From the NCBI GenBank assembly GCA_005223125.1, contig NJBH01000001.1:180495-244494 (forward strand): DNA of 64,000 nt. Reading direction: 5' to 3'. Under the pieces are notes generated by a model. It made no database searches, was not told where the DNA came from, and worked only from the letters and a program-made list of their open reading frames with translations. The translations under genes were made by a program, and so were the position numbers. This document shows, one piece after another, positions 3,680-22,744 of this stretch. This stretch comes from Promethearchaeota archaeon Loki_b32. Its GTDB lineage: Archaea; Asgardarchaeota; Lokiarchaeia; Sigyniarchaeales; SOKP01. The first letter of the stretch is position 1, and each line of letters begins with the position of its first letter.

Positions 3680-4288
3680 TTGATGAACCAGATAAACGAC
3701 AAACAAATATCTCTTGATGATATCGAAGTACCAGAAAAAATTCCTACAAAATTCATAAATAACCGAGTGATTGTTTTTAACTCACTTTTTGCGTCTTATT
3801 TATATGTTAAAGGTATCAATGGACAACGTTTTTTTGGTTCCCCATTAGGGATTAGTAAGCCGCGATTGGAGTATTTCTCAAAACCATCAGAACTATCGTT
3901 AATTGAAGCATATTATTTATTACAAAGAGAAGCTATAACAATTTTTCACGTAAAAGAAAACAAATATTTAATATCTGAAGAATTCTATGAGATTGCAAAA
4001 AAAAATCATCATAAGTTTAAAGAAAAATACATTATCTACAAAGATTTAAGAGATAGAGGATATATTCCTAGGCCTGGACTAAAGTTCGGAGCCGATTTTG
4101 TGATTTATCGTCTTGGTCCAGGGCTTGAGCATTCTCTTTTTATGGTTCATGTTTTACCACATGATGCTGAAATTACTGCGATTGATATGGTCAGAGCTGG
4201 TCGTTTAGCAACCTCAGTGAGAAAAAAATTTGTAATTGCCAATCCTCTTACGTGCAGTTATTACTTTTTTGAGTGGTTCAAACCTTGA
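3680..4288 (+). CDS. endA: tRNA-intron (splicing) endonuclease, catalytic subunit
   Basis: LSLIEAYYL, YKDLRDRGY, GLKFGADFVIY, EHS and RLATSVRKK (Tyr/His/Lys triad). Confidence 0.92.
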   Translation: MMNQINDKQISLDDIEVPEKIPTKFINNRVIVFNSLFASYLYVKGINGQRFFGSPLGISKPRLEYFSKPSELSLIEAYYLLQREAITIFHVKENKYLISEEFYEIAKKNHHKFKEKYIIYKDLRDRGYIPRPGLKFGADFVIYRLGPGLEHSLFMVHVLPHDAEITAIDMVRAGRLATSVRKKFVIANPLTCSYYFFEWFKP

Positions 4289-4312: not shown

Positions 4313-6133
4313 TTAGATTGTTAGACTTCTTAATCTTTTCAGTAATTTATTCTTTAATTCTTCAATTAGGTAGAAATCATCATTTTTAACAGAATGTCTA
4401 ATTCTTAAAATTTCATTAATAATCTCAGAATCTAAGAAATTTTCAATTAAAATACCTTGTTCTATAAGTAATTTCCCTTCATTATAAATTAAGAGAATGA
4501 TTTTAATTAGACCCAATAATTTTTTAATTTTAGTATAATTGTCGATATCATCAAAAGCACTCTGAATTAAAAAACCATTTTTAATTAATCTTGCGAGGAA
4601 AAGAACTAGTTGTTGATCATCAGGTAAATTTTTTTCTCCTATGAGTTGAATAATATAAGTTAATTCTTTCTCTTCTGATAATATCTCATTTACTTGTTTT
4701 CGACACTCAATCCAATCAATATCGATCTCGGGCCAATCAATATCCCTTTCATACCACCATTCAGCGATTAATGGAGCATAATTTGAATATGAATTCATCC
4801 AATTTATTGCAGGATAGTGCTTTAAATAAGCCAATTTTTGGTCTAATGCCCAAAATGATTGTACTAATCGCTTAGTGGTTGCGGTAACAGGTTCACTAAA
4901 ATCAGCTGCAGGAGGTGAAATTGTACCAATAATAGTTAATGATCCCTTTCTCCCAATTCCTTGATGATCTGTTCCAAGTGTTTTAACAACCCCAGCCCTT
5001 TCATAGAAATTTGAAAGCTTTGATGGCAAATAAGCAGGATACCCTTCTTCTGCGGGCATTTCTTCTAACAATCCAGAGATCTCTCTAAGAGATTCTGCCC
5101 ATCTTGAGGTGCTGTCTGCGAGAACAGCAACATCATATCCCATATCTCGAAAATATTCTGCTATTGTTACTCCAGAGAATAAACTAGCCTCTCTTGCTGA
5201 AACGGGCATATTTGAAGTATTAGCTATTAGAACAATACGTTCTAATAAAGGACGTCCAGTTTGAGGATTTATTATTTCAGAAAATTGCTTTAGAATATTT
5301 GCAATCTCGTTCCCTGGTTCTCCACACCCTATAAATACAACAACATCAGCATTACTCCATTTAGCTAAAGATTGTTGTATTACTGTTTTTCCTGTCCCAA
5401 AACCGCCAGGTATTGCTGTAGTACCTCCTTTTGCTATTGGAAATAACAAATCTATAACTCGCATTCCTGTAATTAATGGTTCACTAGGGTTTTCTTTCCT
5501 GGCATAAGGGCGATTTACTGTAATTGGCCATTTTTGCATCATTGAAAATGATTTCTCTTGAGAATTTATTTTCAATTTATATATTTCATCTATAATTGTA
5601 TAATCACCCTCATCAGAGATAAATGAAAGAGTGCCTGAATGATATGGAGGAACCATAATATTATGCTCAAAGTTTTGTGTTTCTTGAACAGTACCTATGA
5701 TATCACCGCTATTAATTTTGTCTTTTATCTTTCTTAATGGAATAAAATGCCACTTTCTGGTCCTAGATAAAGGAGGAAATTTAATACCCCTTTCCAATCC
5801 TCCAGAGCCAAAATTTTTAAAAACTTCTTTTAGGGGTCTTTGAATCCCATCAAAAACATTAGATATTAATCCAGGAGCTAATTCCATTGATAGAGGCTCG
5901 TTTAAATTGATAACCTCTTCATTTAATTTTACCCTTATTGTGTTTTCATAACATTGTGCTATGATATGGTCAGAATATATTTGTATTACTTCCCCCAATA
6001 TTTGATAGTTTGATATTTTCACAAGATCATGAAGCCGAACATGATTCTCTAATCCTTTAATTTTAATGAGAGATCCAATAATTGCTGATATATAGCCTGT
6101 ATTGAATCCTTTGTTAGATTCTTCCATATACAA
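4313..6133 (-). CDS. atpA: A/V-type ATPase subunit A, second paralog with altered catalytic motif (GEPGNE)
   Basis: Full-length A homolog: P-loop [41 protein letters not shown]; catalytic-region Arg replaced by Pro. Confidence 0.9.
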
Positions 6134-6154: not shown

Positions 6155-6595
6155 TTAATAAATAATTTGATGCTTACAAAATGGGCATGTGTCTACAAAA
6201 TTTGGTACTATATTACCACAATTTTCACATTTTTTAATTATTGATTTACGATATTTAAAATCAAGATTAACCGGTTTGAAGATTTTTGTTTGAGATTGCT
6301 GTAAGCCTTTTTTTCTTTTACTAGATATTTGTGCCTTTTGATTATTGATTTTTATTTTTCTTCGTCTGTCTGGAAACATTCTAGAATAAAGAGACCTTTT
6401 ATTTCTCCTCAAGAAAGGTCCAATAGTAGTTAAGAAAACAAATACTACTAATAATGTTATTATTAAAGGATTGAAACCAAATTCAAGAAGGAGAAAATAG
6501 AAATAAAGTAATATACTTAAATATACAACCAGTATTATTGACCGAATAATTAGTTTTTTTCTATTTAACCTATTTTGAATTTCTTCATTAGACAT
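6155..6595 (-). CDS. Two-TM membrane protein with C-terminal zinc ribbon
   Basis: Two hydrophobic helices, basic linker, CENCG...CPFC. Confidence 0.75.
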   Translation of the reverse strand: MSNEEIQNRLNRKKLIIRSIILVVYLSILLYFYFLLLEFGFNPLIITLLVVFVFLTTIGPFLRRNKRSLYSRMFPDRRRKIKINNQKAQISSKRKKGLQQSQTKIFKPVNLDFKYRKSIIKKCENCGNIVPNFVDTCPFCKHQIIY

Positions 6596-6624: not shown

Positions 6625-9111
6625 TTATTGAAATTTTTTCAATATATACTTCTTAGCTTTATTAATTTCTTCTTTTACTGATTTGGTATCAATTTCTTTT
6701 TCGATCTCTTCAATAATAATATCCTTATCGATTTCTCCCCTAAAATTGATAATCGAATAATCATTATCTAAATAAAATGGAAAATATTCAATTCCTGCCC
6801 CCCGATAGAACTTAAAGAAGAATTCGTAGAAGTGCAAACGAAGAGCATTGATAAAAACTAATAATCCTTCTAATAAGATTACAACTAAATTACCAAATAT
6901 CGCCCCAATAAAATTTACAATCTCTACTCCAATACTCTCTCCCTCAATCAACGCTGACATGGCATTTATAGAATATAATAATGCTATATGAGCTAATGCC
7001 AATGCTAATAATCTGATATAAGATGCAACATTACTCATAATAGATAAAGCAGTGTCGAATGCTTCAATTGAACCTTCACCTAATAAACCTCCAAAAGATT
7101 CATTTTGTAAATATGAAATTTTAAATAATTTGCCAAAAGGTTTCGATATTAGCAAAAGAATTCCAGGAATTAAAACTAGTAATATAGGATATGGATCCGC
7201 GAACCAAGTATATATAGCAAAACCATATCCAAAAATTAAAACTGTTCCTCCTGTTAATAATAGAATTTTAATAAAGGAATCGCTAAATGCTAAATATTTT
7301 CTATGTTGTTTCCAGTAATTTAAAAATTGGATAAACCAACCCAAATTGATGTGAAAAACACCAATATATACAGCAAAGGTGAATACATTCATTATATTAT
7401 TCAATGGATTAAATAGAGTGATATTAAAAATTCTTAAATCAAATATTCCTTGGAGGTTTAATAAGTACATAATTAAACTAAATAATGCCATACACACACC
7501 AAGACCAATAAATCTTTTCCCCAATCTACGCTTTATCGCAATAATTAGAACTCCAATAATAACTAATATTCCTCCAATGATTACTATATATCCCAAGAAC
7601 TGTATAACTAACAATGCAATCGAAGCAATGGATATCGGTTTAAGATGCCAAATTACATTTCCAAATATTTCTATTTCATGCATTCCAAAAAATTCTCCAT
7701 ATAAAAATCCAACAAAAATGGCAGCCCAACCGCAAAAGAAAATTATCCAACATAGATTTACGACGTCTTTACTTCGTTTTCTTAATAATATCGCACCTAA
7801 TATTCCAGAAATTATAAGAATTACTCCATGTCCAATATCACCAAACATCAAACCGAAAAGTATTGGAAAAGTTATAGCTATAATTGGAGTAGGATCTATT
7901 TCAGAATAATTAGGTGTTCCATACATTTTGGTAATAGTTTCAAAAGGTTTTACCAGAAAGAAATTTTTCATAATAGTTGGCGCTTTTTCCCTCAAATCTT
8001 CTTTTTCTTCATGTTCTTCTATCTCTTCATCTACACTAATGTATTTTTCTTTAAGTTCTCCCTTTTTTTTCTTCTTATCAATTTTTTTTGTTTTTGAAAT
8101 GGACGTTTCATATATTGGCTGTTTTTTAGATATATCAAACGTCTCAAAAATTATATTATCTTTAAAAGTTTTAAATAAAATCTGTAGTATTTCTTCTTTT
8201 TTTGAAATTGGAACAAAAAATTTGAGTATTAAACGATTTGAAGATGATCGTTCGAATTGCTGTTCAACCCAATTATACTCTTCAATGTTTTGTACAATTT
8301 CATTAATACCCACGATTTTTGCTAAATTATCTGATGTAATTCGATTTTGTTCTTTCCTATATCTTGATACTAAGTTTTCAATAAATTTAATCTCCTTATT
8401 TATTCTCGAAAAATTAATTCCCTCATTTGTTAAATATTTTTTTAATATTGGAACTTCTTCAGAATGAATTAATCGAATCCTTCCTCTAAATTCTTCTTCT
8501 TTATCTTTTGGATAAAGAATATAAAAACCAATTCGATCATCAGGAATTTCAAATACCTCATAAAAGTTAGGAAATTCTGAGAAATCAAGAAGATTTTGGA
8601 GATTAGTAAAATTTTTAGAAAATGTAGTAAAAACTCTAAACTTAAATTGTTTTAAGTCATCAATTTTATCTTTACTAAAATTTAATTTTTCTAAATATGT
8701 ATAGCTCGCTTTTAGTGTACGAAGATTTTCTAATTCTATTATTCCTTGTGAAATATAATTATTTAGTTCGGTAAATCTATTTGCAAAAAAATCTATTTCT
8801 TCAAGGAGATGAGTAATTAATTCATGTAAATCTTTTGCTACAAATTCAGCTCTTTTATCCTTATCAACTTTCGTTTCTAAGAGCTCATATTCATTTAAAT
8901 TAAGCCTTTTAAGTAAACTATTTAAATTTTTCCTTAAAGTCTTAATAGATTCTCTAATTGAATCTTTTTCCTCCAATTTTTCCTTAATTTCAGGTTTTTC
9001 TCTTTGTTTTATATGAACGGAGTTTATATTAGACAATACAACAAGAAATTGATCTTTAAAATTCTCGTTAAGTTCGGCTTTAATTAAACTAAATTCATCT
9101 TTCCTTACCAT
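6625..9111 (-). CDS. atpI: A/V-type ATPase subunit I (a)
   Basis: EIDPTP, FGLMFGDIGHG, SYIRLLALALAH (essential Arg), LRLHFYEFF. Confidence 0.95.
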   Translation of the reverse strand: MVRKDEFSLIKAELNENFKDQFLVVLSNINSVHIKQREKPEIKEKLEEKDSIRESIKTLRKNLNSLLKRLNLNEYELLETKVDKDKRAEFVAKDLHELITHLLEEIDFFANRFTELNNYISQGIIELENLRTLKASYTYLEKLNFSKDKIDDLKQFKFRVFTTFSKNFTNLQNLLDFSEFPNFYEVFEIPDDRIGFYILYPKDKEEEFRGRIRLIHSEEVPILKKYLTNEGINFSRINKEIKFIENLVSRYRKEQNRITSDNLAKIVGINEIVQNIEEYNWVEQQFERSSSNRLILKFFVPISKKEEILQILFKTFKDNIIFETFDISKKQPIYETSISKTKKIDKKKKKGELKEKYISVDEEIEEHEEKEDLREKAPTIMKNFFLVKPFETITKMYGTPNYSEIDPTPIIAITFPILFGLMFGDIGHGVILIISGILGAILLRKRSKDVVNLCWIIFFCGWAAIFVGFLYGEFFGMHEIEIFGNVIWHLKPISIASIALLVIQFLGYIVIIGGILVIIGVLIIAIKRRLGKRFIGLGVCMALFSLIMYLLNLQGIFDLRIFNITLFNPLNNIMNVFTFAVYIGVFHINLGWFIQFLNYWKQHRKYLAFSDSFIKILLLTGGTVLIFGYGFAIYTWFADPYPILLVLIPGILLLISKPFGKLFKISYLQNESFGGLLGEGSIEAFDTALSIMSNVASYIRLLALALAHIALLYSINAMSALIEGESIGVEIVNFIGAIFGNLVVILLEGLLVFINALRLHFYEFFFKFYRGAGIEYFPFYLDNDYSIINFRGEIDKDIIIEEIEKEIDTKSVKEEINKAKKYILKKFQ

Positions 9112-9122
9112 TTATAGCATAC

Positions 9123-9770
9123 TCAAATTGTTTTTTGTTTTTGGATAATTATATCTTTTGTTTTTTTTAATCTAATATAGTTTTCTCTTTCGATTTCTTC
9201 TAATATCTCTCGAATTTTTTTAATATTAAATTTTAATCTTGGTATTATTAAATTTTTTAGACCATTTATCCTACGATTGATTTTTTTAAAATTTATAGCG
9301 TGTTTTAAAATCAGATCCTCAATTTCAGAAAATTGGATTAATTGTTCAAAAAATATTTTTAATACATTAATTAAATCATCCAAATAATGACTTGTGTTTT
9401 CGAATGTATAAGCAGGAAGTTTCTCTTCTTGAATTAATTCATATTTAATCTTTGGAATCATTATTCCTGCTTTTTTTTTATGTTGAATCTCAATTTTAGG
9501 TTTATATTGGATCCTACTTAATTTACTAATTAAAAATAAATTATTCTTACCCATCTCTTCATAAGTGAGATTTAGCAATTTTAGTGATTTCTTAAATAGA
9601 GAGAGAAATTCTTTCCTATTTGTCTTATATTGTTTCCACAATTTTCTCAGTTCGAAAATTAATTGTTTTCTCCTGAATTCTAAAAAATTTTCTCCTTTGT
9701 CTGCAAATGCTAACCTTTTTTGCAGTGCCATTAAATTCGATTTCGTTGGCTTAATCTCTCTAAAACTTAT
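9123..9770 (-). CDS. atpD: A/V-type ATPase subunit D; probable start ATA 9770 or ATT 9773, ORF track starts at 9731
   Basis: In-frame upstream extension SFREIKPTKSNL supplies the conserved N-terminal PT(K/R)xxL motif; NRRINGL...IIP and ERENYIRLKKTK. Confidence 0.88.
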   Translation of the reverse strand: MSFREIKPTKSNLMALQKRLAFADKGENFLEFRRKQLIFELRKLWKQYKTNRKEFLSLFKKSLKLLNLTYEEMGKNNLFLISKLSRIQYKPKIEIQHKKKAGIMIPKIKYELIQEEKLPAYTFENTSHYLDDLINVLKIFFEQLIQFSEIEDLILKHAINFKKINRRINGLKNLIIPRLKFNIKKIREILEEIERENYIRLKKTKDIIIQKQKTI

Positions 9771-9773
9771 AAT

Positions 9774-11165
9774 CTACACCCTTGCTTGAAAGTATTTATC
9801 AATATATTTTTGATGAATTCTCATTAATTGATTAGGATTTAAATTAGAAATCACATCCCACGCTATATTAAGAGTATTCTCAAAAGTTCGATTCTCATCT
9901 TCTTTTTGATTTAAAAACCGTTGTTCAAAATCGATCCCAAATTTTAATAAATTTTTTTGTTCATAATTTAAGCCATCTTCTCCTACAATTGAAATTAAAT
10001 CCTTTACTTCAAGATAGTTAGAATATGAAGATAATAATTGTGAGCTAATATCAGCATGATCTTCTCGTGTTTTCTCTGCTCCAATTGCATCTTTCATTAA
10101 TCGTGAAATCGATGCTAAAACTTCGAAAGGAGGGTATACACCTTTCTTATGTAAATCTCGGCTAAGTACTAATTGTCCTTCAGTTATATAACCCGTAGTA
10201 TCCGGTATTGGATGAGAGATATCATCATTGGGCATTGTTAATATTGGTATTTGAGTTATCGATCCTTTCTTTCCTTTGATTTTACCAGTCCTTTCATAAA
10301 GAGATGCAAAATCAGAATATATATATCCCGGATATCCTTTTCTACTAGGAATTTCTTCTTTTGCAGTGCTTAATTCTCTCAATGCTTCAGCATAATTTGT
10401 CATATCAATTAAAATTACTAGAACATGCATATCTTTTTCAAAAGCAAAATATTCTGCTGTTGTTAATGCTATTCTTGGAATTATCAATCGTTCAATTATA
10501 GGATCGTCAGCAAAATTGATAAAAGAAATGATATTTTGTAAACTACCAGTTTCTTGAAAACGTTTTAAAAAATAAATTGCGTCATCATGAATTATTCCAA
10601 TCCCACAAAATATAATTACAAATGATTCCTCCGAAATAACTTTTGCCTGTGATGCTATTTGAGCCGCTAATTTATTGTGAGGTAATCCTTGAACACTAAA
10701 AATAGGAAGTTTTTGACCTCGTATTAAAGTAAACAAACCATCGATTACAGATATACCTGTTTGTATGATATCTACAGGATATTCTCTGGCAAATGGATTA
10801 ATAGGAACCCCATTTATATCTCTTTGAACCTCAGTTAAAATATCAGAATCTAAAGCGATTTTAGTTTTAATATCAATTGGTTTTCCTAATGAATTAAAGG
10901 TTTGCCCAAACATATCTTTAGAAATTTTTACTTGAAATGTATCTTCAGTAAATATGATTTCAGCGTTTTCTGAAGAGATTCCTGTAGTTTCTTCGAAAAC
11001 TTCAACAACAATTACTTGTTCATCCATCTTGACGACTTGTCCTGTGCGAGTTTTACCATCATTTGTTTTAATTTTTACTATCTCACCATACTGTGCATTG
11101 TGTTCATTCTTGAGAAATATTAATGGTCCAATAATTTGTTGGATTTTTTTATATATTACACTCAT
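9774..11165 (-). CDS. atpB: A/V-type ATPase subunit B
   Basis: RGQKLPIFS, GLPH, DMTNYAEALRE, PDTTGYITEGQ, SRLM (Arg finger). Confidence 0.96.
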   Translation of the reverse strand: MSVIYKKIQQIIGPLIFLKNEHNAQYGEIVKIKTNDGKTRTGQVVKMDEQVIVVEVFEETTGISSENAEIIFTEDTFQVKISKDMFGQTFNSLGKPIDIKTKIALDSDILTEVQRDINGVPINPFAREYPVDIIQTGISVIDGLFTLIRGQKLPIFSVQGLPHNKLAAQIASQAKVISEESFVIIFCGIGIIHDDAIYFLKRFQETGSLQNIISFINFADDPIIERLIIPRIALTTAEYFAFEKDMHVLVILIDMTNYAEALRELSTAKEEIPSRKGYPGYIYSDFASLYERTGKIKGKKGSITQIPILTMPNDDISHPIPDTTGYITEGQLVLSRDLHKKGVYPPFEVLASISRLMKDAIGAEKTREDHADISSQLLSSYSNYLEVKDLISIVGEDGLNYEQKNLLKFGIDFEQRFLNQKEDENRTFENTLNIAWDVISNLNPNQLMRIHQKYIDKYFQARV

Positions 11166-13006
11166 AATTTTCTGAATACTCCATATGATATTTTCATAGA
11201 TTCAATCTCATTAATTAAATTATTTTTTATTTCTTCTATTTTATTGAAATCTTCATTACGAATTGAATGGTTAATTCTTAATATCTCAATTATAGTTTTA
11301 AGTTCTTTAATATCTTCCAGTAAAAATCCTTGCTTAAGTAGTTCCTTACCTTCTTTATACAACAATAGAATAATCTTTATCATTCCTAAAAGTTTCCTAA
11401 CACCTGTATAATTATCTATGTCATCAAACGCATTTTGGATTAGAAATCCGTTTTTAATCAATTTTGCAATAAATAAAGTTAATTGCTGGCTTTCAGGTAA
11501 ATTTTCTTCACCTATTAATTGAATAATATACTTCAATTCATTATCTTGAGATAAAATGTCGTTCACTTGTTTTCGGCAATCAAACCAATCAATATCGATT
11601 TCTGTCCAGGTAATATCTCTTTCATACCACCATTCTGAAATATAATCGGGGTAATTAGAATAAGAGGTCAACCAATTTATAGCGGGATAATGTTTTGAAT
11701 AAGCTAATCCCGCATCTAAAGCCCAGAACCCTTGAACAAAACTTTTCGTGGTTGTCGTCACTGGTTCGCTAAAATCACCCGCGGGAGGAGAAATTGATCC
11801 AATAATGGTCAAAGAACCCGTTCTTTCCGTCCCAGATTCTGAATTACCAAACAACTTGACTATTCCAGCTCGTTCATAAAAACTTGAGAGTTTAGATGGT
11901 AAATATGCAGGATACCCCTCTTCAGCAGGCATTTCTTCTAACAACCCGGAGATTTCTCTAAGAGATTCTGCCCATCTTGAGGTGCTATCTGCGAAAACAG
12001 CAACATCATATCCCATATCTCGATAGTATTCAGCAATAGTCACACCAGAAAAAATACTGGCCTCTCTTGCTGAAACTGGCATGTTTGAAGTGTTTGCAAT
12101 TAAAATGATGCGATCTAATAAAGGATTACCAGATTTTGGATCGATTAATTCAGAGAATTGTTTTAAAACATCTGCAATCTCGTTTCCTCTTTCTCCACAA
12201 CCAACATATACGCAAACATCAGCATCACACCATTTAGCTAAGGATTGTTGTATAACTGTTTTACCAGTTCCAAAACCTCCGGGAACTCCAACTGTACCCC
12301 CCTTTGTAATGGGAAATAATAAATCAATAACACGTATCCCTGTAATTAAAGGTATATTGGAGATTGTTCTCTCCTTAAAAGGACGGGTTATAGTTATTGG
12401 CCATTTTTGTAACATAGAAAAAGATTTTTCTTTATTATTCTTTTTTAGCTTATATATCTCATCAATAATAGTATATTCGCCTTCGTCTGAGAGGAAAGAC
12501 AATTTTCCTGAATTATTTGGAGGAACTAATATTTTATGTTCTATCATTGGAGTTTCTTGGACTACACCAATTAAATCTCCTTCATTTACATTATTTTCAT
12601 TTTTATTTTTAGGAGTAAAGTGCCACTTCTTTGAACGTGATAAGGGAGGCAATTCTAATCCTCTTTGTAGTCCTCCATCTTTAAAAAGACCGAAAGCTTT
12701 TTGTAAAGGTCTTTGGATACCGTCAAAAACATTTCCCAATAATCCTGGTGCTAATTCCATCGAAAGGGGTTCATTTAAATTAACAACCTTTTCATTAATC
12801 CGTAAATTAGAAGTGCTTTCAAAACACTGAGCAACAATATAATCAGAATAAATTTGAATTACTTCTCCTAAAATATTATGTTTCGTAATTTTAATAAGGT
12901 CATGAAGACGAATCTGAGCTTCCAAACCTTTAATCTTAATTAATGATCCTGTGATTGCTGAAATATAACCTAATATAGAATTGGTTTCAGAATTGGATTT
13001 GTTCAT
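11162..13006 (-). CDS. atpA: A/V-type ATPase catalytic subunit A
   Basis: [24 protein letters not shown] and [10 protein letters not shown] intact. Confidence 0.96.
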   Translation of the reverse strand: MNKSNSETNSILGYISAITGSLIKIKGLEAQIRLHDLIKITKHNILGEVIQIYSDYIVAQCFESTSNLRINEKVVNLNEPLSMELAPGLLGNVFDGIQRPLQKAFGLFKDGGLQRGLELPPLSRSKKWHFTPKNKNENNVNEGDLIGVVQETPMIEHKILVPPNNSGKLSFLSDEGEYTIIDEIYKLKKNNKEKSFSMLQKWPITITRPFKERTISNIPLITGIRVIDLLFPITKGGTVGVPGGFGTGKTVIQQSLAKWCDADVCVYVGCGERGNEIADVLKQFSELIDPKSGNPLLDRIILIANTSNMPVSAREASIFSGVTIAEYYRDMGYDVAVFADSTSRWAESLREISGLLEEMPAEEGYPAYLPSKLSSFYERAGIVKLFGNSESGTERTGSLTIIGSISPPAGDFSEPVTTTTKSFVQGFWALDAGLAYSKHYPAINWLTSYSNYPDYISEWWYERDITWTEIDIDWFDCRKQVNDILSQDNELKYIIQLIGEENLPESQQLTLFIAKLIKNGFLIQNAFDDIDNYTGVRKLLGMIKIILLLYKEGKELLKQGFLLEDIKELKTIIEILRINHSIRNEDFNKIEEIKNNLINEIESMKISYGVFRKL

Positions 13007-13715
13007 AATACCTTAAATACTCTGAGATTTTTTCTTTTTGTTTTTGTATAAAATTCTCGAATTCATTTTCAATTCCTTTAATTTCTGCATCATTTATAAT
13101 TTTTGAAATTTCCATTTGAATAAATGATGATTTCTTATCTATTAAATTATCAATTGTATAATCATAAGAGATAAACCCTCCTGTAAGTGATATTTTGAAA
13201 CCACCTATAAAATCATGTTGATCTTTATTAATTTCTACTGGATTCTTAAATAAATCAACAATTATATCAAAATTTTTAATGAAGTAATTGTAATCCTTAC
13301 TGTTAAATTTTAATTCTATTTCTTGAGGCTTATCTATGGCAAATTTGGCATTTTGTATAGATTTCAATAAATATGCAATATAATCAGAGTAATTGTTTTC
13401 AATTCTTTCTTTAATAAGAATATATAAATTTAACTTTAATTCTTTAATCAGTCTATTCTTTAAACTTAATAGAGTTTCTTTGCCCTTTAATAGGGTTGAT
13501 GATAAGGATTGGTTTAAGAATTGTTCATAACTTTCTATAAGATGGCTTTTTAGTTTTATTGATCTCTCGCGCGATCTTTCTAAATATCTCTTTTTTATTT
13601 CCGCTTTATGAAATAATGTTTTTTGATTCAATTCTTTAATTTCTTTCTGTGCTTTCTCTATTAAATAAAGGCCTAAGTTTCCAAATTGTTTCCTTAATTC
13701 TTTTTCTTCTGAAAT
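12987..13715 (-). CDS. atpE: A/V-type ATPase subunit E; probable start ATT 13715, ORF track starts at 13631
   Basis: C-terminal IGGFKI...YDYTI motif; lies between F and A; open in-frame helical extension SEEKELRKQFGNLG... Confidence 0.8.
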   Translation of the reverse strand: MSEEKELRKQFGNLGLYLIEKAQKEIKELNQKTLFHKAEIKKRYLERSRERSIKLKSHLIESYEQFLNQSLSSTLLKGKETLLSLKNRLIKELKLNLYILIKERIENNYSDYIAYLLKSIQNAKFAIDKPQEIELKFNSKDYNYFIKNFDIIVDLFKNPVEINKDQHDFIGGFKISLTGGFISYDYTIDNLIDKKSSFIQMEISKIINDAEIKGIENEFENFIQKQKEKISEYLRYYEQIQF

Positions 13716-13726
13716 TTTAAATCATC

Positions 13727-14053
13727 TCATTTTATTAAAACAACATCACCTATAGCGTCAACAATTCTATCTAAAATAATACCTTCTTTCTCAATATTAA
13801 AATGGAAAATATCTGGTAAAATAAATATAAATGGATTTCTATTAGTTTGCTTGAAATCCAATAAATACTCAATAATTTCATTTGATAAAGGTAAAGCTAT
13901 AATCAACATGCCGATTGAATCTCTATTTGTTAATTCTGTGAATTTTTTTAAAAAGTCTTCTTCATTTTCAACAACACTACCATCTAAACCTAAAAGTCCT
14001 AACATTGATACAATTTCTTCTTCACCTAAGATATAAATATTTTGCTCAACCAT
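13727..14053 (-). CDS. atpF: A/V-type ATPase subunit F
   Basis: IYILGEEE...LLGLDG, IGMLII, PFIFILPD, AIG; size and operon position. Confidence 0.82.
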   Translation of the reverse strand: MVEQNIYILGEEEIVSMLGLLGLDGSVVENEEDFLKKFTELTNRDSIGMLIIALPLSNEIIEYLLDFKQTNRNPFIFILPDIFHFNIEKEGIILDRIVDAIGDVVLIK

Positions 14054-14364
14054 TAGAAATCAAGTCCAACTTCTTCAATAATTAATTTTTGTAAATTTTC
14101 CAAATTTTTTTTAAATTCAGTTTCAATATTTTGAATTGCCTTATCTAATTTTTTCTCAAAAGTATTGGTTTTAATATCACTTTCTACTGTAATATTTCCT
14201 ATAGCTGTATTTACAAGAACATTTATTTTTATAATGAAATCCTCAAATTTTTCATTTTGTTCTTTTCTATATTCTTCAATTTCGTTTAAATTAAGTTTTT
14301 TGGCATTACCGATTAAATCTTCATAAACTTTTTCAATATCCTTTACCCATTCGAACAGATCCAT
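14053..14364 (-). CDS. atpH: A/V-type ATPase subunit H/G (peripheral stalk)
   Basis: 103-aa charged helical protein within the operon. Confidence 0.6.
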   Translation of the reverse strand: MDLFEWVKDIEKVYEDLIGNAKKLNLNEIEEYRKEQNEKFEDFIIKINVLVNTAIGNITVESDIKTNTFEKKLDKAIQNIETEFKKNLENLQKLIIEEVGLDF

Positions 14365-14408: not shown

Positions 14409-15470
14409 TTATTTTAATAATTTATATTTCTCGTGAATAATATTAACTACTTTTGGTAACACAAATAAACGAATTTCATTATCTTTTTTAATTAAAACTT
14501 CAATAATCTTAAAAATTGCTTGATAGTCAATATCATCAATCTTAATCTTAAATGTTTTAAAAAAAATATCCAAGTATAAGGTCTCAAGAGACCAAATTAA
14601 ATGGGTCTCATCAAGTTTAAAGGTTTTTAGTTTTTTTTTAATTTCTTTTTTTTCATTTAAATATTGATTTAGCTTTAACATATAAGATTCTACATCTGGT
14701 TGATTCAATAAAGTTAACAATTTATTTTTATCTAGAAATAAATAAGTGTCAACTAGAAATTGTGATAATAATTTTCTCTCAATATTGTTTTTAATTCCCC
14801 TGTATATTACATTTAAATTGTATATTTCTGAGATATTCTTCAGATACAATGATATCATAAATCTCTCTTTATGACCTAAAACTCTCATCTCATTTTTCAA
14901 ATTTTCATAATATATCTGATCCAAAAATGCTTCGAGAACAAAAATTTCGTTAGTATTTTTAAAGTATAGAATTCCCTCTCTTATTGCTATGTTATATTTT
15001 GTTTGTTTCATTAATAATTGAATCTTATCTAGGGATGATAATTCAATCAATTCATTCATAAATTCAGTGTTACCTAGATATTTTTCTACTAATTTATTAA
15101 CCATTAACGATTTTTCAGCAATGCTCATTCCTAAAATAGTGCCGAGAACAACGCGCTTTATATTCATTATTTCGTATTTTATTAGATAGTTTTTTAAAAA
15201 GATTCTCATAGTCCTCGGTGAAATTAAAATAATCTTTCCGATTAACTTAATATAAGTATGAAATAATTCTCTTTCAATTTCTTCAATTGTATAAGAACTA
15301 AGATTAAGACCAGGATAATAAATGCTAATAAACTCAATTAATTGCTTAATTTCATTTATTTCTTCTAATTTATTTAGCGTGATCTCATCCATCACTAATT
15401 GCTTCAAAAAGCCAATTCTTATGAAAGTGTACGCGTAACTTGGCACAGTGACACTCGTGGTATTCACCAA
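14409..15470 (-). CDS. atpC: A/V-type ATPase subunit C (d)
   Basis: YAYTFIRI, YEIMNIK, LEAFLDQIYY, NLNVIYRG; size and position. Confidence 0.85.
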   Translation of the reverse strand: MVNTTSVTVPSYAYTFIRIGFLKQLVMDEITLNKLEEINEIKQLIEFISIYYPGLNLSSYTIEEIERELFHTYIKLIGKIILISPRTMRIFLKNYLIKYEIMNIKRVVLGTILGMSIAEKSLMVNKLVEKYLGNTEFMNELIELSSLDKIQLLMKQTKYNIAIREGILYFKNTNEIFVLEAFLDQIYYENLKNEMRVLGHKERFMISLYLKNISEIYNLNVIYRGIKNNIERKLLSQFLVDTYLFLDKNKLLTLLNQPDVESYMLKLNQYLNEKKEIKKKLKTFKLDETHLIWSLETLYLDIFFKTFKIKIDDIDYQAIFKIIEVLIKKDNEIRLFVLPKVVNIIHEKYKLLK

Positions 15471-15514: not shown

Positions 15515-15886
15515 TTAATTAGTAAGAGGTGTCGGTATTTTTGTCCAAAGTAAGATTGCTACTATCAATCCGTAAACTGCTAATGCTTCACAAAGAGCAA
15601 CAACGAGAAAAGCTTTAAAGAACGCTTCTTCTCGTTCTGAAAGTGCTGAGATCGCAGCTGTTCCAACAGTTTTCATAGCCCAAGCACTCCCTAATACTGC
15701 AGCACTTACTGAAATTGCAACTGATAATCCTAATACCATAGTAGTCGCAGAATCATAATAATCAAAAGCATCAGGAACTTGAGCCGCTACGAAAGATATA
15801 ATTCCATTTGAAGTAAAAATTACTAAGAAAATCAAAATAAATTGGAAGATACTAAGTAATAAATAAAATTTATGTTTACCGTTCAT
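15515..15886 (-). CDS. atpK: A/V-type ATPase proteolipid subunit K (c), single hairpin with N-terminal signal-like segment
   Basis: GSAWAM...GTAAISALSE...ALCEALAVYGLIVAILL with the carrier Glu. Confidence 0.93.
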   Translation of the reverse strand: MNGKHKFYLLLSIFQFILIFLVIFTSNGIISFVAAQVPDAFDYYDSATTMVLGLSVAISVSAAVLGSAWAMKTVGTAAISALSEREEAFFKAFLVVALCEALAVYGLIVAILLWTKIPTPLTN

Positions 15887-16084: not shown

Positions 16085-16720
16085 TTATTGATAAAGTAAA
16101 ACCCGTATTATGTCTGCAATATCATGAATTCGATCAGCTAATTGTTCTAATAATACAATACTATCTCGTAAACGCAAGAGTACTCTAATATTCAAATTCT
16201 CATTGGAATATATATACTCAAGAAATTGCCGATATATTGTATCAATTTCATTTTCAATCTCATGAATCGCTGTGGTATTTTTAAACACTACATCTGGTTT
16301 ATCTCTTAGACTTTTAATCGTTGACTTCAAAACAGTAGCCATATTAATTGTTTTATTAATTAGTTTTTCATATCTCTTACCGATCTCCTTATTACTTTTA
16401 CCATCCAATTTAATCTTAGGCAACATATCCACGAATTCTAAAGGATAGTTTATAACATTATCCATTTTTAAAATTAACGCTATAAAATCGCCTAAATCAG
16501 CTCCAGCTTCAGAATATTTCTGAATTAACTCAATTTTAATAACATCTGCATCCTCTTCAGATAATTGCATTTTGCTTTTCTTCTTGTCTAGAGAAGCTTT
16601 ATTCTTCTCATAATCTTCAGCCCATCCGCTGTAAAAAACACCCATATCACTAAGAACAGAATAAATAATTCTAGAGTGTTCAATAAGCATTGAAATGATT
16701 TCGTCTCGAATTTTATTCAT
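16085..16720 (-). CDS. DUF47 / PhoU-like helical protein
   Basis: EEDAD, IENEID and EQLADRIHDIAD acidic repeats. Confidence 0.8.
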   Translation of the reverse strand: MNKIRDEIISMLIEHSRIIYSVLSDMGVFYSGWAEDYEKNKASLDKKKSKMQLSEEDADVIKIELIQKYSEAGADLGDFIALILKMDNVINYPLEFVDMLPKIKLDGKSNKEIGKRYEKLINKTINMATVLKSTIKSLRDKPDVVFKNTTAIHEIENEIDTIYRQFLEYIYSNENLNIRVLLRLRDSIVLLEQLADRIHDIADIIRVLLYQ

Positions 16721-16931
16721 GAAAATTCCATTTAAATATTTAATTAACTCCTATAAATATAAAAAATTAGATCAATAAAAAAATATTGGATTTAGAGAAA
16801 TTTTAATATATTCTTAATTTAATTTATAAGTAAATTCTAAATGAATTGAAAAGATCTTTTCAAAATAATAATATTATTGAGAATTGAATAATTTAGGTTT
16901 ACAAATAATAGAAAGGTGAAGAGAAGACTTA

Positions 16932-17576
16932 ATGAAATTAAATAAAACTATTCAGCAATGGAAGCAATATTCAAAAATGTCTGATTTGGGAGAAATTGCT
17001 CGACGTAAATTTTTTAATAATTGTTTTGATGGCGCTTTGACATGTTCAGGTATTGTTAGTGGAATATTTATTATTTTTCTCTCGGGTTCTTCTATTTTTA
17101 TCCCAAGAAATGTTATTATAACAGGTTTTGCCACAGCTCTTGCAATTGGGATTTCTGGTTTATGGGGCGCATTTCTTTCTGAAGAAGCTGAAAGAAAGAA
17201 AAAAATGTTGGATATGAAAAAAGAGATGGCAATTATAGAAGAAGAAGGGGATGAAAAAACGGGTAAACCTAAAAAGAATAATATACAAGATAAACCATTA
17301 CTGGAGAGGGCTGAAAATTTTGCTACCATTATTGCTTCATTGGTAGATGGAGGTGCTCCAGTACTAGGAAGCTCACTTCCATTGATTCCATTTTTCTTTG
17401 GATCTTCTTTAACAATAGTTCATTTTATCTCCTCATACGTTATTCTTATCGGTTTACTTATATATTTAGGGATCTTTTTAGGAAAAATTTCAGGAGGCGG
17501 CCGTATTAGATATGCACTTCATTTAGTGACCGCTGGTGGTGTTACCTTATTAGTCTCTTTAGCACTTGGAATTTAA
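16932..17576 (+). CDS. VIT1/CCC1-family (TIGR00267-like) transporter
   Basis: ARR...FDGALT, SG..GAFLSEEAE, PLIPF. Confidence 0.8.
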   Translation: MKLNKTIQQWKQYSKMSDLGEIARRKFFNNCFDGALTCSGIVSGIFIIFLSGSSIFIPRNVIITGFATALAIGISGLWGAFLSEEAERKKKMLDMKKEMAIIEEEGDEKTGKPKKNNIQDKPLLERAENFATIIASLVDGGAPVLGSSLPLIPFFFGSSLTIVHFISSYVILIGLLIYLGIFLGKISGGGRIRYALHLVTAGGVTLLVSLALGI

Positions 17577-17700
17577 AATTTTGAGGAAAAACGATTTTTA
17601 ACAAAAAGGCAAGGACGTGAAAGAATAGACAAAAATAAATTAGATTGAGAAGAATACAAGTATTCGTTCTTCTTAATAAAAGATTAATCTGCTAATTAAA

Positions 17701-18411
17701 ATGTTTGAAAGAGCTAAAACATACGCAAAAATTACAAATTTATGGGGAATTGCTCGGCGTTATTTTGTAAATAACTTCTATGATGGTATGCTAACAGTTC
17801 TAGGAATCCTGCTAGGATTCTTGGTTTTAATTCTTAAGGAAGATCAAACTTCAATTGATAGTCATCTTGTGATTTTAACAGGGGTAGGGAGTTCGATATC
17901 AATGTTTATATCAGGATTAACTGGATCATATCTTTCAGAAAAGGCTGAACAAAAAAAAATGAAAGAGGAATTGGATCGAGCAATGGTAATAATTAAAAGT
18001 GAGGTGGAAGAAACACTAGAGAATTCTGCTGATATTAAGGAGATAGAAAAAGCTATGTTGATCAAAATAAATCATAATGTAAATTTAAAAGCTAAAAGAA
18101 GAATAGGGAAAAAAAAAAAAAAAATTAAAACTCTTCAAGAAAAAGCTGAGATTTTTGCAAGTATTATTGTCTCACTTATTAATGGCGGTTCTCCATTTTT
18201 AGGGGGTTTAGTACCTCTAATTCCCTTTTTTCTTGTATCGACCGCTAATTTATCAATTTTTCTGATATCTTTTTTAATAATTCTTATTTGTATAATATTA
18301 CTTGGAATCTTTTTAGGGGTAATTTCAAAGGAATCTATTCTTAAAAATGTGATTCAGATGACATTTGCATTTTTTATAACCATACTTATCTCAGTATTTT
18401 TGTTAAGATAA
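17701..18411 (+). CDS. VIT1/CCC1-family (TIGR00267-like) transporter, second paralog
   Basis: ARRYF...YDGMLT, SMFISG..GSYLSEKAE, PLIPF. Confidence 0.8.
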   Translation: MFERAKTYAKITNLWGIARRYFVNNFYDGMLTVLGILLGFLVLILKEDQTSIDSHLVILTGVGSSISMFISGLTGSYLSEKAEQKKMKEELDRAMVIIKSEVEETLENSADIKEIEKAMLIKINHNVNLKAKRRIGKKKKKIKTLQEKAEIFASIIVSLINGGSPFLGGLVPLIPFFLVSTANLSIFLISFLIILICIILLGIFLGVISKESILKNVIQMTFAFFITILISVFLLR

Positions 18412-18487: not shown

Positions 18488-19279
18488 TTGAAGATATGTG
18501 GAGTGGACATTGGTAGTCTTGAGACAAAAGTAGTGTTACTCGACGATAATAATATTATTGATTATCGTGTAGGCCGATCAACTTATGATTTCAAACGTGT
18601 TGGAAATAATTTATTTAATGATCTATTAGAACACCATAATTTGAAGAAAAGTGATGTTTATATTATGAGTACAGGTTATGGGCGCAATACAATCGATATA
18701 GCAGATGATAGAATAACAGAGATTACTGCACATGCGAGAGGAGCGCAATTTTTCTTTCCTGATGTGAATTCTGTTATAGACATTGGAGGTCAAGATAGTA
18801 AAGCGATTGTAATTTCTAAAAAAACTGGTAATGTAATCGACTTCCAGATGAACGATAAGTGCGCTGCTGGAACAGGTCGTTTTATTGAGGTGATGTCAGG
18901 TGCTCTAGAGGTTCCCATCCAAGATATTGGAGATTTAGCACTTAAATCTAATAATCCTGCATCAATTAGTTCAACATGTACTGTATTTGCTGAATCTGAA
19001 GTAATCTCTCTTTTTGCAAAGGGAACAAAAAAAGAAGATATTGCTGCGGGAATTCATAAATCAATAGCAAGAAGGGTTGCGGGAATGGCTAAACGTATAG
19101 GAGTAGCACCTCTTTTAGTTTTTTGTGGTGGTGTTGCAAAAAATATTGCAGTAAAAGAATTTTTAGAACAAGAATTAGGATTTGAGATTGTTATTCCCGT
19201 AGATAACGGAAAGAGTATTGCCCAACTTACTGGAGCGATAGGAGCGGCTCTAATTGCACAAGACCAAAATAACGGTTAA
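18488..19279 (+). CDS. 2-hydroxyacyl-CoA dehydratase activator (HgdC/BadF-type ASKHA ATPase with [4Fe-4S])
   Basis: GVDIGS, TGYGR, IDIGGQDSK, MNDKCAAGTG, STCTVFAESE, GGVAKN. Confidence 0.93.
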   Translation: MKICGVDIGSLETKVVLLDDNNIIDYRVGRSTYDFKRVGNNLFNDLLEHHNLKKSDVYIMSTGYGRNTIDIADDRITEITAHARGAQFFFPDVNSVIDIGGQDSKAIVISKKTGNVIDFQMNDKCAAGTGRFIEVMSGALEVPIQDIGDLALKSNNPASISSTCTVFAESEVISLFAKGTKKEDIAAGIHKSIARRVAGMAKRIGVAPLLVFCGGVAKNIAVKEFLEQELGFEIVIPVDNGKSIAQLTGAIGAALIAQDQNNG

Positions 19280-19388
19280 CTCTTTTTTAAAAATATTTTT
19301 AAGTTTTAAATTTTGTTTGATTATGATAAATTTTATGAAGAATTAACTATTTTTTGACTAATAATTCAAATTTTTTAATATCATTAAA

Positions 19389-20525
19389 ATGGATAATTTA
19401 GAGCTTTTATCTGAATACTCATTGTTTTTAAGAGAAAAAAAAGAAGAAGGAAAAAAAGTAGTAGCTTTTATTTCTCATGATAACATCCCAGAAGAATTAC
19501 TAGATGCTGCTGGATTCGTACCTTTAAGATTAATGTTTGCAGGAAACGATGAATTAATGGATGCTAGCCATGATTATTTATCTCCTTCTACTTGTGCTTT
19601 TGCACAGTCTTGTATTGGGTTATTTTCAATAAAACCTAGCCATTATCGATTTTTAGATATAATAGACTATTTTATTATTTCAAATCATTGTGTAAGTGAT
19701 ATATGCGCATCGGAAATTATTTCTAAATATTTTAATATTCCTCGGTTGAATTTTTATATATCATATACTAAAAATGACAATAGTGGGAAATATTTTAAAT
19801 TAGAATTACTGGATTTTAAAGATCAATTGGAAAAAATTAGTGGAATTAAGATAAAAAATGAGGATTTAAAAGAAAGTATCCGAAACTATAATAATTTTAA
19901 GAAAAAAATATTTGAATTTAGTAATTTGAATATAATAGGGTCAGAAAAATTAAGAGTTCTTCAAAGAGCAATGCTGTATGGGCCCCCATTTTTACCCGAA
20001 TTAGAATCTCATATTCAAATGTTCAAGGAAAATCAAGTTCAAAAAACTGATAATTTAAAAGGAATATTAATTACAGGGGGTTCTATTTTTTTAAATGATT
20101 TTCTAATTGATTTAATAGAAGAAGCAGGAGGGAATGTTATCTTTTTTGATACTTGGGTTGGATATAGCTATTATTCCCAAATTTTTGAAGATAACATTAT
20201 TGATTCAATAGAAAATCCTCTTGATTTATTAGTGAATCGCTTTAAGAACAATATCTATGATGATCACTCTGTTCCTAATTTTTTAGAGAACAAAATATCT
20301 CAAATTGAGTTAGTTTACCAAGAATATTTCAAGAAAACTGGAAGAAAATTAGGGATTATAAATCATATTATAAAATTCTGTGATCATATTTCCCTAATGT
20401 CATCACATTTAAAAAATCGACTGCAGCAAAAAGGGATTTCAGTTTTAAATCTCGAGAGAGATTACTCAAAAGCAAATCGCGGTCAATTATCAACTAGAAT
20501 AGAAGCATTTTTGGAGATGATGTAA
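19389..20525 (+). CDS. 2-hydroxyacyl-CoA dehydratase family subunit (HgdB/FldC-like)
   Basis: PEELLDAAG, TCAF, HC, KFCD, GQLSTRIEAFLEM. Confidence 0.88.
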   Translation: MDNLELLSEYSLFLREKKEEGKKVVAFISHDNIPEELLDAAGFVPLRLMFAGNDELMDASHDYLSPSTCAFAQSCIGLFSIKPSHYRFLDIIDYFIISNHCVSDICASEIISKYFNIPRLNFYISYTKNDNSGKYFKLELLDFKDQLEKISGIKIKNEDLKESIRNYNNFKKKIFEFSNLNIIGSEKLRVLQRAMLYGPPFLPELESHIQMFKENQVQKTDNLKGILITGGSIFLNDFLIDLIEEAGGNVIFFDTWVGYSYYSQIFEDNIIDSIENPLDLLVNRFKNNIYDDHSVPNFLENKISQIELVYQEYFKKTGRKLGIINHIIKFCDHISLMSSHLKNRLQQKGISVLNLERDYSKANRGQLSTRIEAFLEMM

Positions 20526-20527
20526 AA

Positions 20528-21895
20528 ATGAGCCTTATTGCAGATGACATTGTTAGATTTAGTTCTGTCTTAAAGATAGCTTACAACCTCTTAACAGGTA
20601 GAGAATATTTAAAAAGAAAAAAATTTAGAGAAAAAAAGAAGCTAATTTCAGTAGCATTACCATTCTCCGATTTAGTTTATGGGTTTCCTGATTTAGTTCC
20701 TGTTTTTCCTATTAGAACGCACACATTTAAAATGCATAAATATCTAACGTATTTAGGTTCTGCTTCAAATATTTTTGGCTGGAAAAATGTAGCCAATTTT
20801 TTAGGTTATATAAAAAACATGGGTATTGGCGATGTAAGCAAAATTATTGATGAGATTATAGATAATGTGATAGATACTGTAAATGATAAATACAATGAAA
20901 TGTACGACATTGGAGTAGAAAATGGTATACCTACTGACTTTTGTTATGGAATAAAAATTCTCTATGGAATGCATGTTACAAAAGGGAAGAATTATGATGC
21001 TAATTTAAATTATACTATACGATGTAGTGCGTGGAATAAATATCTTGAATCTTTAAAAACAATTAATAACTCGCCAAAACAAATCTGGATTGATATACCA
21101 CCTAGAAACGTTGGTAATGCACTAGAATTACTAATAGAAAATATTTATGATGGAATAAGAGAATTAGAAAAAGTTAGTGGGAACAGCTATGATAGAAACA
21201 TTCTTAGAAATCATTTCCAGGTTGGTAATGAAATAAGGAAGGTATATAAAACAATCCTATATGAAATAAGCACGTCTGATTTTTATCCCTGTAATCCTGC
21301 CACATTTAGTGAAATATTAGTAATATTAAATAATAGTTTTCAAGATTATAATTCCAATGCAATTCGATATCGAGATAATATGAACTCTTTACTATATGAA
21401 ATGAAAGAGAGAGTGAGAAAAAAAATTGGCATGGATGTTAGCAATATGCCAAAAATTTTATTTACTCCTATGTTTGGGGGGTGGGAACCAAAAACCCATG
21501 AAATAATATATGAGCTCGGTGGACGAGTATTGTATGCTGACTGGGATCTGTTATTAACATTAGAGGAAATACCTATTAAAACAAAAACTGATCCTGTTGA
21601 AGCTTATGCAAGTTATCTAATGAATATCACAACAAATGGTATAGGTTGTGATAATGATAAACTAACAGATTCTTATTTACGAATAGCAAAAAAATTAAAT
21701 GTAGATGGTCTTATATTTAACCAAGTTTTTGGTTGCCATTCAGTATCTAATTGTTTCACGATGCTAAAGGAAAAAATTCGTCGAGAACTTGAAATCCCTA
21801 GTATTGCTCTCACTTTTAATAGGATAGGGGAAAATATTGAGCAAGTTAAGACGCGTCTTGGAGCTTTTATGGAAATGTTTAGGAGTTTTAAATAG
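20528..21895 (+). CDS. 2-hydroxyacyl-CoA dehydratase family subunit (HgdA/FldB-like)
   Basis: DFCY, IRC, GCH, EQVKTRLGAFME; 3 nt after the previous gene. Confidence 0.8.
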   Translation: MSLIADDIVRFSSVLKIAYNLLTGREYLKRKKFREKKKLISVALPFSDLVYGFPDLVPVFPIRTHTFKMHKYLTYLGSASNIFGWKNVANFLGYIKNMGIGDVSKIIDEIIDNVIDTVNDKYNEMYDIGVENGIPTDFCYGIKILYGMHVTKGKNYDANLNYTIRCSAWNKYLESLKTINNSPKQIWIDIPPRNVGNALELLIENIYDGIRELEKVSGNSYDRNILRNHFQVGNEIRKVYKTILYEISTSDFYPCNPATFSEILVILNNSFQDYNSNAIRYRDNMNSLLYEMKERVRKKIGMDVSNMPKILFTPMFGGWEPKTHEIIYELGGRVLYADWDLLLTLEEIPIKTKTDPVEAYASYLMNITTNGIGCDNDKLTDSYLRIAKKLNVDGLIFNQVFGCHSVSNCFTMLKEKIRRELEIPSIALTFNRIGENIEQVKTRLGAFMEMFRSFK

Positions 21896-21902
21896 GACAT
21901 AA

Positions 21903-22385
21903 TTAAGCTTTTTTTTTTGGGAAGAACATCTTTCTACTTGAATGGACTGCTTCGAAGTAGTCTTTATATTTTTCGATGTCATCATGAATTTCTTCTAATT
22001 CTTCATTTTCTAACATATTAATAAAAATTCTTTTTAAGGATATATATAATTTAGGAATAAATGTATCTATTTGAGATAATTGGTAAGCTAGTTCTTTGAT
22101 TGAAGAAAAATCCAATTTTAAGTTAATTTCTCTTAGTTTAATTTTTTCAATTATTTTATTCTCAATTTTTCTTCTAGAAACGTTACTCCATGTTATTTCA
22201 TATGAAAAATAGAATAGACTTTGCACGAATTCAGTTAAAAGTGCGGTTCCTGTTGCTATAGCAAGGCTTCCTGTAATGATGTATGCTGTTAAAGTCCCTA
22301 GTATTAATGTTATTGATCTATAAATTAAACTTTTAAAAAGACTTTGTTTCCACTCTATTTTCTGCAATTTTTTTTTTGATTTCAT
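21903..22385 (-). CDS. DUF2061-like small membrane domain plus soluble tail
   Basis: SLFKSLIYR...AYIITGS...YFSYEITW. Confidence 0.65.
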   Translation of the reverse strand: MKSKKKLQKIEWKQSLFKSLIYRSITLILGTLTAYIITGSLAIATGTALLTEFVQSLFYFSYEITWSNVSRRKIENKIIEKIKLREINLKLDFSSIKELAYQLSQIDTFIPKLYISLKRIFINMLENEELEEIHDDIEKYKDYFEAVHSSRKMFFPKKKA

Positions 22386-22744
22386 CTTAAGGTTTTTACC
22401 ATTCTAATTTTATAAGAATTTCAGTTATTATCTTTAATAATTTTTTGCATAAAAAAAAGAAATGGCATTAGAAGTTCTTCTCAAGGTTTTCTTAATTTCT
22501 CTTTTGTGTAACAATTAATATTTATCTCCCTTTTCTTTCTCAACTATTCAATTTTTAATTCTCTTTCTTTCACCTTAATAGAAATTAAGTGAAGTCTTTT
22601 TAAAATAACGAACTAGACTAATTGAAAAACATTTTGTTAAATTTATTAATTCTCATAAATTTTATTAGAATTTTATGATTAAATTTAAATTGTAAATTTT
22701 TAAGTATTAAAAATAATATTTTAATTTATTAAAGCCCTAGTAAA

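Follow-up and report, generated by a model that had tools for sequence, protein, structure and literature searches.

A second A/V-ATPase subunit A with proline in place of the phosphate-binding arginine in a family of Lokiarchaeia

The window studied here is a stretch of 64,000 nucleotides from Promethearchaeota archaeon Loki_b32 (assembly GCA_005223125.1, contig NJBH01000001.1, positions 180,495 to 244,494), and our subject is the gene at 4313..6133 on its minus strand, which encodes a second subunit A of the A/V-type ATPase. We call this protein A'. It is read either from a TTG at 6133 (606 amino acids) or from an ATG at 6127 (604 amino acids, the choice of gene callers), and the sequence AGGGGG, similar to a Shine-Dalgarno site, lies upstream of the start. 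A' is 71% identical to the canonical catalytic subunit A of the same window (11162..13006, minus strand) over its full length, with 2 gaps. The P-loop (GGFGTGKT) and the catalytic Glu are both kept; the residue following that Glu is not. That is, A reads GERGNE whereas A' reads GCGEPGNE, and codon 273 is AGA (12188-12190) in A versus CCA (5315..5317, minus strand) in A', so that Pro273 stands in place of the gamma-phosphate-binding Arg of the 'arm' helix. An earlier note on this DNA had described an intact, complete 606-residue A paralog closing the cluster, with P-loop and catalytic Glu retained, a CCA codon for Pro at this site, and a Trp-rich segment common to both copies; the alignment bears out each of these statements.

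A' contains the four Pfam domains PF02874, PF16886, PF00006 and PF22919, including the A-specific insertion, and it clears the NF003220 cut-off no less well than A. Its database name is that of an ordinary subunit A. Like all A subunits of the window's family, both A and A' have Leu355 (SGLLEE) at a position that is Arg in other A subunits (SGRLEE), and Tyr replaces the adenine-stacking Phe.

On the minus strand the operon runs K, C, H, F, E, A, B, D, I, a gene for a 146-residue protein, and A'. The earlier note had the order from K to I right and omitted the 146-residue gene (6155..6595), a conserved operon member, between I and A'. Family matches identify subunits K (c; 15515..15886, PF00137), C (d; 14409..15470, PF01992), D (the central rotor; 9123..9731, PF01813) and I (a; 6625..9111, PF01496), and the stator subunit E (12987..13631) is called from a weak match to NF002424 (E 2e-4) together with synteny. 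The genes at 13727..14053 and 14053..14364 probably encode subunit F and the stator partner H/G, respectively, on grounds of size, position and conservation, with no family scan behind the first call and no family hit for the second. Subunit B (9774..11165) is present in a single copy, with its arginine finger R355 intact. According to tblastn searches with all subunits, this is the sole A/V-ATPase locus in the 4.13 Mb, 95.5% complete genome, which thus holds two A genes and one B. Convergent with A' at the end of the operon lies endA, the gene for tRNA-intron lyase (3680..4288, plus strand), which also marks the clean absence of A' in relatives.

It is important to ask whether the Pro might reflect a sequencing error, an assembly artefact, or a decaying duplicate. 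All the data come from metagenome-assembled genomes (MAGs), and nonsynonymous divergence (dN) is about 1.4-fold higher in A' than in A, both of which would fit such an explanation. However, residues 225-330 of A', Pro included, are 100% identical in five further database proteins, and Pro273 is therefore not an assembly error; nor is it a simple read error, as the earlier note had argued. Moreover, the frames are intact, internal stops in A' are absent, and the same Pro recurs in dozens of species through four synonymous codons (CCT, CCA, CCC and CCG are all used). We also estimated the ratio of nonsynonymous to synonymous divergence (dN/dS) by the modified Nei-Gojobori method over 21 genome pairs, which are not independent of one another. 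The median is 0.19 for A' (range 0.12-0.36), compared with 0.14 for A, 0.08 for B, 0.20 for D and 0.24 for I. A' is slightly relaxed, yet it is constrained like the core subunits. The earlier note had proposed this ratio as a test, and the outcome is purifying selection, as opposed to a ratio near 1 or broken frames; we reject A' as a pseudogene on the same grounds, and the probability we assign to error or decay is negligible.

We compared 46 copies of A' with 76 other copies of A, residue by residue. Position 273 is Pro in 46/46 of the former and Arg in 76/76 of the latter, so that orthologs in relatives have not kept the Arg, the outcome that the earlier note had named as speaking against its reading. 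The Walker A Lys (K249) is present in all 46 copies, followed at position 250 by Thr in 44 and Ser in 2; the catalytic E272 and the Walker B D340 are found in 46/46, Glu276 and Arg344 are likewise invariant, and the adenine pocket is nearly whole. The fixed or nearly fixed differences from A are R273P, D279N (44/46), I318L, F423L/V/I, S437L and E501K/R, and A432 is mostly replaced by Pro or Ser. Residues 273 and 279 both fall within the arm helix. No compensating Arg or Lys appears near the nucleotide site, either in A' or in B, and no residue in the A, B, D, E, F or K subunits of the relatives compared cleanly tracks the presence of A'. The C-terminus of A' is shorter than that of A, which we do not adopt as a functional trait, since the conserved end of A shares its DNA with the ribosome site of B.

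The role of the missing residue is known from other enzymes. In E. hirae V1 the equivalent Arg262 of the arm binds the gamma-phosphate together with the P-loop Lys and the arginine finger of B, and stabilises the tight form (PMC5095293). In E. coli F1 the equivalent is beta R182, and the mutant betaR182Q hydrolyses ATP at 0.020 versus 42 umol/min/mg, a drop of about 2000-fold; binding of inorganic phosphate (Pi), tight ATP binding and the transition state are lost, while MgADP binding is kept (PMC3268026). The Arg is missing in all 46 A', and the claim that A' has lost a residue needed for catalysis elsewhere while retaining the P-loop and the catalytic Glu holds for all of these copies.

These patterns bear on the idea that A' is a low-rate isoform, forming A'3B3 heads of its own with different kinetics or a different nucleotide preference. 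The catalytic Glu, the P-loop Lys and Walker B are invariant, dN/dS is close to that of A, and Pro273 occupies the first turn of a helix, where Pro is tolerated. Nevertheless, neither A' nor B has acquired a basic residue close to the site, the corresponding change in E. coli lowers activity about 2000-fold (PMC3268026), and in none of the examined genomes with an intact operon does A' stand before B in the position of A. We consider an isoform of this kind improbable.

We also rejected the possibility that A' is a new B subunit. The B-type traits are a degenerate P-loop, no catalytic Glu and no A-specific insertion, and A' is A-like on all three. In addition, R355 of B aligns to N451 of A', a position that holds neither Arg nor Lys in any A', and without an arginine finger A' cannot replace B. 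Judged by descent and fold, A' is a subunit A without one of its defining catalytic features, and it is no B.

To follow the distribution of A', we searched 398 Asgard genomes with a 21-base motif around the Pro codon, which replaced a 15-base motif that was too noisy and which misses variants such as GEPGSE. The motif occurs in 79 of the 133 genomes of the window's family, spread over seven genera, and in 0 of 264 Asgard genomes outside it. In a broader genome-wide scan, matches within ATPase genes were confined to low-GC archaeal MAGs, mostly labelled Promethearchaeota (Lokiarchaeia), with a few under other Asgard labels at NCBI. Bacterial and other non-archaeal matches lay in unrelated frames and were not ATPases, and three matches outside the family that carried an Ile codon fell outside ATPase genes; we discarded both sets. 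The GEPGNE copies are conserved and syntenic, which the earlier note had suggested checking: A' almost always follows subunit I and the 146-residue gene, directly after the latter, and in one genus it lies elsewhere in the genome. Several intact operons have no A', the 146-residue gene being followed directly by endA or other genes, and on a tree of B plus I the presence of A' requires at least 5-6 gains or losses. On these two grounds, A' is accessory and dispensable.

The history of the gene is best read from a large tree in which 44 of 46 A' copies fall in one group (SH-aLRT, a likelihood-based branch support, 96). The A' copies of one genus instead group with their own A, to which they are 80-90% identical over the N-terminal half, and still they have Pro273, Leu318, a non-Phe residue at 423, Leu437 and Lys501. 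The simplest reading of these alignments would be one origin of A' followed by gene conversion that spared the diagnostic sites. L190/L191 (G044, G045) exemplify the pattern, with A and A' 80-90% identical in the N-terminal half, which suggests gene conversion sparing Pro273 and its companion changes. When the diagnostic columns are removed, A' splits into a few well-supported groups whose joins are unresolved; a single origin nonetheless seems likely from the sequences. In two genomes the A' sequence is placed with those of another genus but the remaining operon genes are not, which suggests horizontal transfer of A'.

Several unusual copies in relatives deserve separate mention. In L256:1154-3031 and L257:6072-7925 (G057, G058), A' lies outside the operon near an alpha/beta-hydrolase-like gene, its Walker A ends in GKS, and its motif reads CCGEPGNE. 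The sole A found in G060, which is 97% complete (L233:11121-12977), reads GAVGTGKT and GCGIRGNE, with Ile for the catalytic Glu; its operon lacks the 146-residue gene and A', and its K and the arginine finger of B look normal. Either this is a dead ATPase, or a second copy is missing or the assembly is in error. The canonical A frames of L243/L248 (G068) and G034:C65 are about 1140-1160 residues long, with an insertion at Walker A, as expected for an intein. Finally, L044 (G022) and L063 (G031) contain a second, distant A/V-ATPase operon whose A is about 49% identical and has a normal GERGNE.

The 146-residue protein has two predicted membrane helices, a basic linker and a C-terminal zinc ribbon (CxxC...CPxC). 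Its gene adjoins the 3' side of subunit I in nearly all operons of the family and in some of the sister family, and its Atlas cluster is archaeal and unnamed. Together the two proteins invite the suggestion that A' has its role apart from the rotary head, as a soluble nucleotide sensor for instance, possibly in partnership with the zinc-ribbon protein: A' always follows this gene when in the operon, and it has been able to move elsewhere in the genome. Against this, the 146-residue gene predates A', and both faces by which A' would contact B are still constrained, so that we regard such a role as quite improbable. Because the gene is also found in operons without A', the 146-residue protein is not specific to A', and we rejected it as a dedicated partner; it is possibly an unrecognised accessory subunit of the ATPase.

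The constraint on those faces was assessed as follows. An AlphaFold model of A', built from 41 sequences and weak around the P-loop and residues 407-456, was used for the fold only; Foldseek places it with subunit A, at a template modelling (TM) score of about 0.8 to the A subunits of T. thermophilus and E. hirae. A model of the A'-B dimer scored 0.72, compared with 0.00 for the best control, a mark that 58 of 80 solved pairs attained, as against 2 of 110 mismatched ones; its runs agree in 87% of contacts, with a local confidence (pLDDT) of 84. Solved A-B pairs exist, and the score probably reflects likeness to them and is not proof of binding. The catalytic face was taken from the contacts of this model and the opposite face was mapped through B. 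Each shows greater conservation than the remainder of A' (P 1e-4 for the catalytic face, 0.01 for the opposite, although sites are not independent), and they match the A consensus at 49/60 and 55/64 positions. The fixed changes at 273, 279 and 437 lie on the catalytic face. The loop that should contact rotor D, placed from known structures, is more variable and less acidic in A', with a gain of basic charge through E501K/R; this loop and the C-terminal domain are the most relaxed parts of the protein (entropy 1.07 versus 0.44 bits at residues 496-510).

Conserved B faces beside a relaxed rotor loop and C-terminal domain would suit a placeholder, that is, an A' that pairs with B while heads are being assembled, or keeps surplus B in inert heads, until it is swapped for A, and so remains outside working pumps. 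The persistence of A' detached from the operon in one genus fits as well. But the nucleotide site is invariant apart from the Arg, which goes beyond the needs of a scaffold, and close relatives manage with the same operon and no A'. A role in assembly or storage thus seems to us unlikely.

Subunit K is a single hairpin with one carrier Glu, in the motif CEALAVY, and the alignment shows no Ser or Thr after that Glu; judged by known Na+ motifs, K would be of the H+ type. It also has an extra N-terminal hydrophobic segment ending in VAAQ that resembles a signal peptide, and the K hairpins of relatives fall into two sequence types, sharing about 55% or 75-90% identity with that of the window. Membrane subunits of the Complex I/Mrp type occur in 4 of 89 near-complete genomes of the family, and the membrane H+-pyrophosphatase (H+-PPase) in 80 of the 89; neither tracks the presence of A'. 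The window's genome has no match to the Rnf/Nqr, NuoD-type, OadB, MtrE, CoxI or NarI-type families. Since the family is mostly without redox-driven ion pumps, the ATPase probably uses ATP to drive protons across the membrane, a conclusion that depends on genes not found in MAGs. Just upstream of K (16085-18411) lie a TIGR00153-like gene and two similar membrane-protein genes, the first TIGR00267-like. Beyond them, at 18488-24100, a gene resembling a coenzyme A (CoA) activase and three resembling subunits of 2-hydroxyacyl-CoA dehydratase, identified by eye, are in keeping with a fermentative metabolism.

In an energy-poor sediment habitat such as these archaea occupy, a change of gear might be valuable: A2A'B3 heads with an idle A' site would move the same protons per turn for two ATP instead of three, so that each ATP would pump more protons, or synthesis could proceed at a lower proton motive force. 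A tightly coupled motor should be thermodynamically allowed to do so, and loss of the Arg weakens ATP binding without trapping ATP (PMC3268026), so that the site might be pushed open, unlike that of Glu-to-Gln mutants. However, one incompetent site abolishes the ATPase of F1 (PMC4415626), the main torque is generated when ATP binds through the phosphate residues (PMC5380711), and no redox pump was found to drive synthesis. We rate this gear change as rather unlikely. The more general proposition, that heads of three kinds of P-loop subunit (A, A' and B) still turn, with the subunit mix setting the working sites per turn and the H+/ATP ratio, we also hold to be unlikely.

We favour instead, at roughly even chances, the reading that A' is an accessory, nearly inactive copy of A that throttles an ATP-burning proton pump. 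Its basis is the sequence, conservation, selection, distribution and kept interfaces reported above, whereas the consequences of losing the Arg and of having one dead site are carried over from other enzymes. A' would assemble beside B in the seat of a normal A, and would hold Mg-ADP, and ATP weakly, through its P-loop, Walker B and adenine pocket. Without the arm Arg it could not clamp the gamma-phosphate or Pi, and would close and hydrolyse about a thousand-fold more slowly. Because rotation uses three sites in turn, a single A' might slow or park the whole head; in F1, one dead beta of three stops ATPase activity (PMC4415626). The kept Glu would let A' clear bound ATP slowly rather than jam permanently. 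In this way A' may limit the loss of ATP or keep spare heads idle. That A' is expressed and mixes into heads, that the pump runs in this direction, and that the purpose is regulatory, we infer.

Several considerations weigh against such a throttle. If a dominant brake is encoded in the very operon it acts on, many heads would be disabled unless its supply were kept small or induced at need, and our search turned up no conserved promoter, terminator or weak ribosome site able to give low or induced A'. (A scan for sigma-70 promoters and terminators stayed at chance level, with a sigma-70 model that does not fit archaea.) Codon usage in A' is that of all other operon genes and is uninformative on level, and three metatranscriptome contig sets yielded only short diverged pieces, usable neither for nor against expression. 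The invariant catalytic Glu would also fit real turnover, and the variable rotor loop with E501K/R could mean weaker coupling to D. The functional numbers all come from F1 or E. hirae V1, none from an A subunit with Arg changed to Pro. Finally, other pumps or the H+-PPase could drive ATP synthesis, the direction of the pump being judged from absences in MAGs.

The earlier note had proposed a pseudo-catalytic A' that binds nucleotide without turnover. Conservation, synteny, purifying selection, loss of the Arg, and retention of the nucleotide-site residues and B faces give this partial support, with nucleotide binding as a prediction. The words 'without turnover' probably go too far: the catalytic Glu never varies, and mutants of the phosphate site in F1 continue to rotate, if 10^3-10^4 times more slowly and with less torque (PMC5380711). 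As for the three roles it offered, a brake fits best among brake, assembly factor and a higher ion-per-ATP ratio, and the idea of a synthase with a higher ratio is weakened, since our searches for a redox-driven ion pump found none and a single dead site halts hydrolysis by F1 (PMC4415626).

A' is a real, selected, family-wide variant whose function we infer. We found no description of it in the literature searched, which included surveys of rotary ATPase evolution and of Asgard transporters and left most subscription papers outside its reach; the plain database name 'subunit A' hides it. The current picture of a rotary ATPase head is a fixed A3B3 ring; a crippled A paralog that is under selection points to the swapping of subunits as a means of control. 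A' is also a natural test of whether a motor can run on fewer than three working sites and shift its H+/ATP ratio, and the question is directly testable, since A, A', B, D and F can be expressed and reconstituted.

How, then, does A' compare with known systems? It resembles subunit A (P. horikoshii 1VDZ/3M4Y, T. thermophilus 3A5C/7VAR, E. hirae 3VR2-6; NF003220) in fold, in its four Pfam domains, and in its P-loop, catalytic Glu, Walker B and adenine pocket, and differs in having Pro for the arm Arg, a set of fixed companion changes, and a place beside a normal A and a single B. The non-catalytic B of A/V-ATPases and alpha of F1 descend from a duplicated P-loop subunit that afterwards lost catalytic residues (PMC10656485). 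A' is likewise a duplicated P-loop subunit that has lost a catalytic residue, a recent replay of that ancient split, but unlike B and alpha it retains the P-loop, catalytic Glu and A-specific insertion, has N451 instead of the arginine finger, and is recent, family-limited and dispensable. The engineered F1 enzymes come close in another respect. E. coli betaR182Q/K has lost the same residue, and betaR182Q, together with the hybrid containing one betaE190Q, displays the phenotype expected of A': ADP binding is retained, binding of Pi and tight binding of ATP are lost, and a single dead site is dominant. Those are laboratory mutants of an F-type enzyme, however, whereas A' is natural, selected, of A/V type, and has Pro. 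With respect to proposed purpose, the nearest counterparts are the inhibitors of ATP hydrolysis by rotary ATPases, namely mitochondrial IF1, the C-terminus of bacterial epsilon, cyanobacterial AtpTheta, and subunit H of yeast V1; we know of no such inhibitor established for archaeal rotary ATPases. They serve, as is proposed for A', to halt wasteful ATP hydrolysis, but they are small add-on proteins or domains, whereas A' is a full-length paralog that would act inside the ring.
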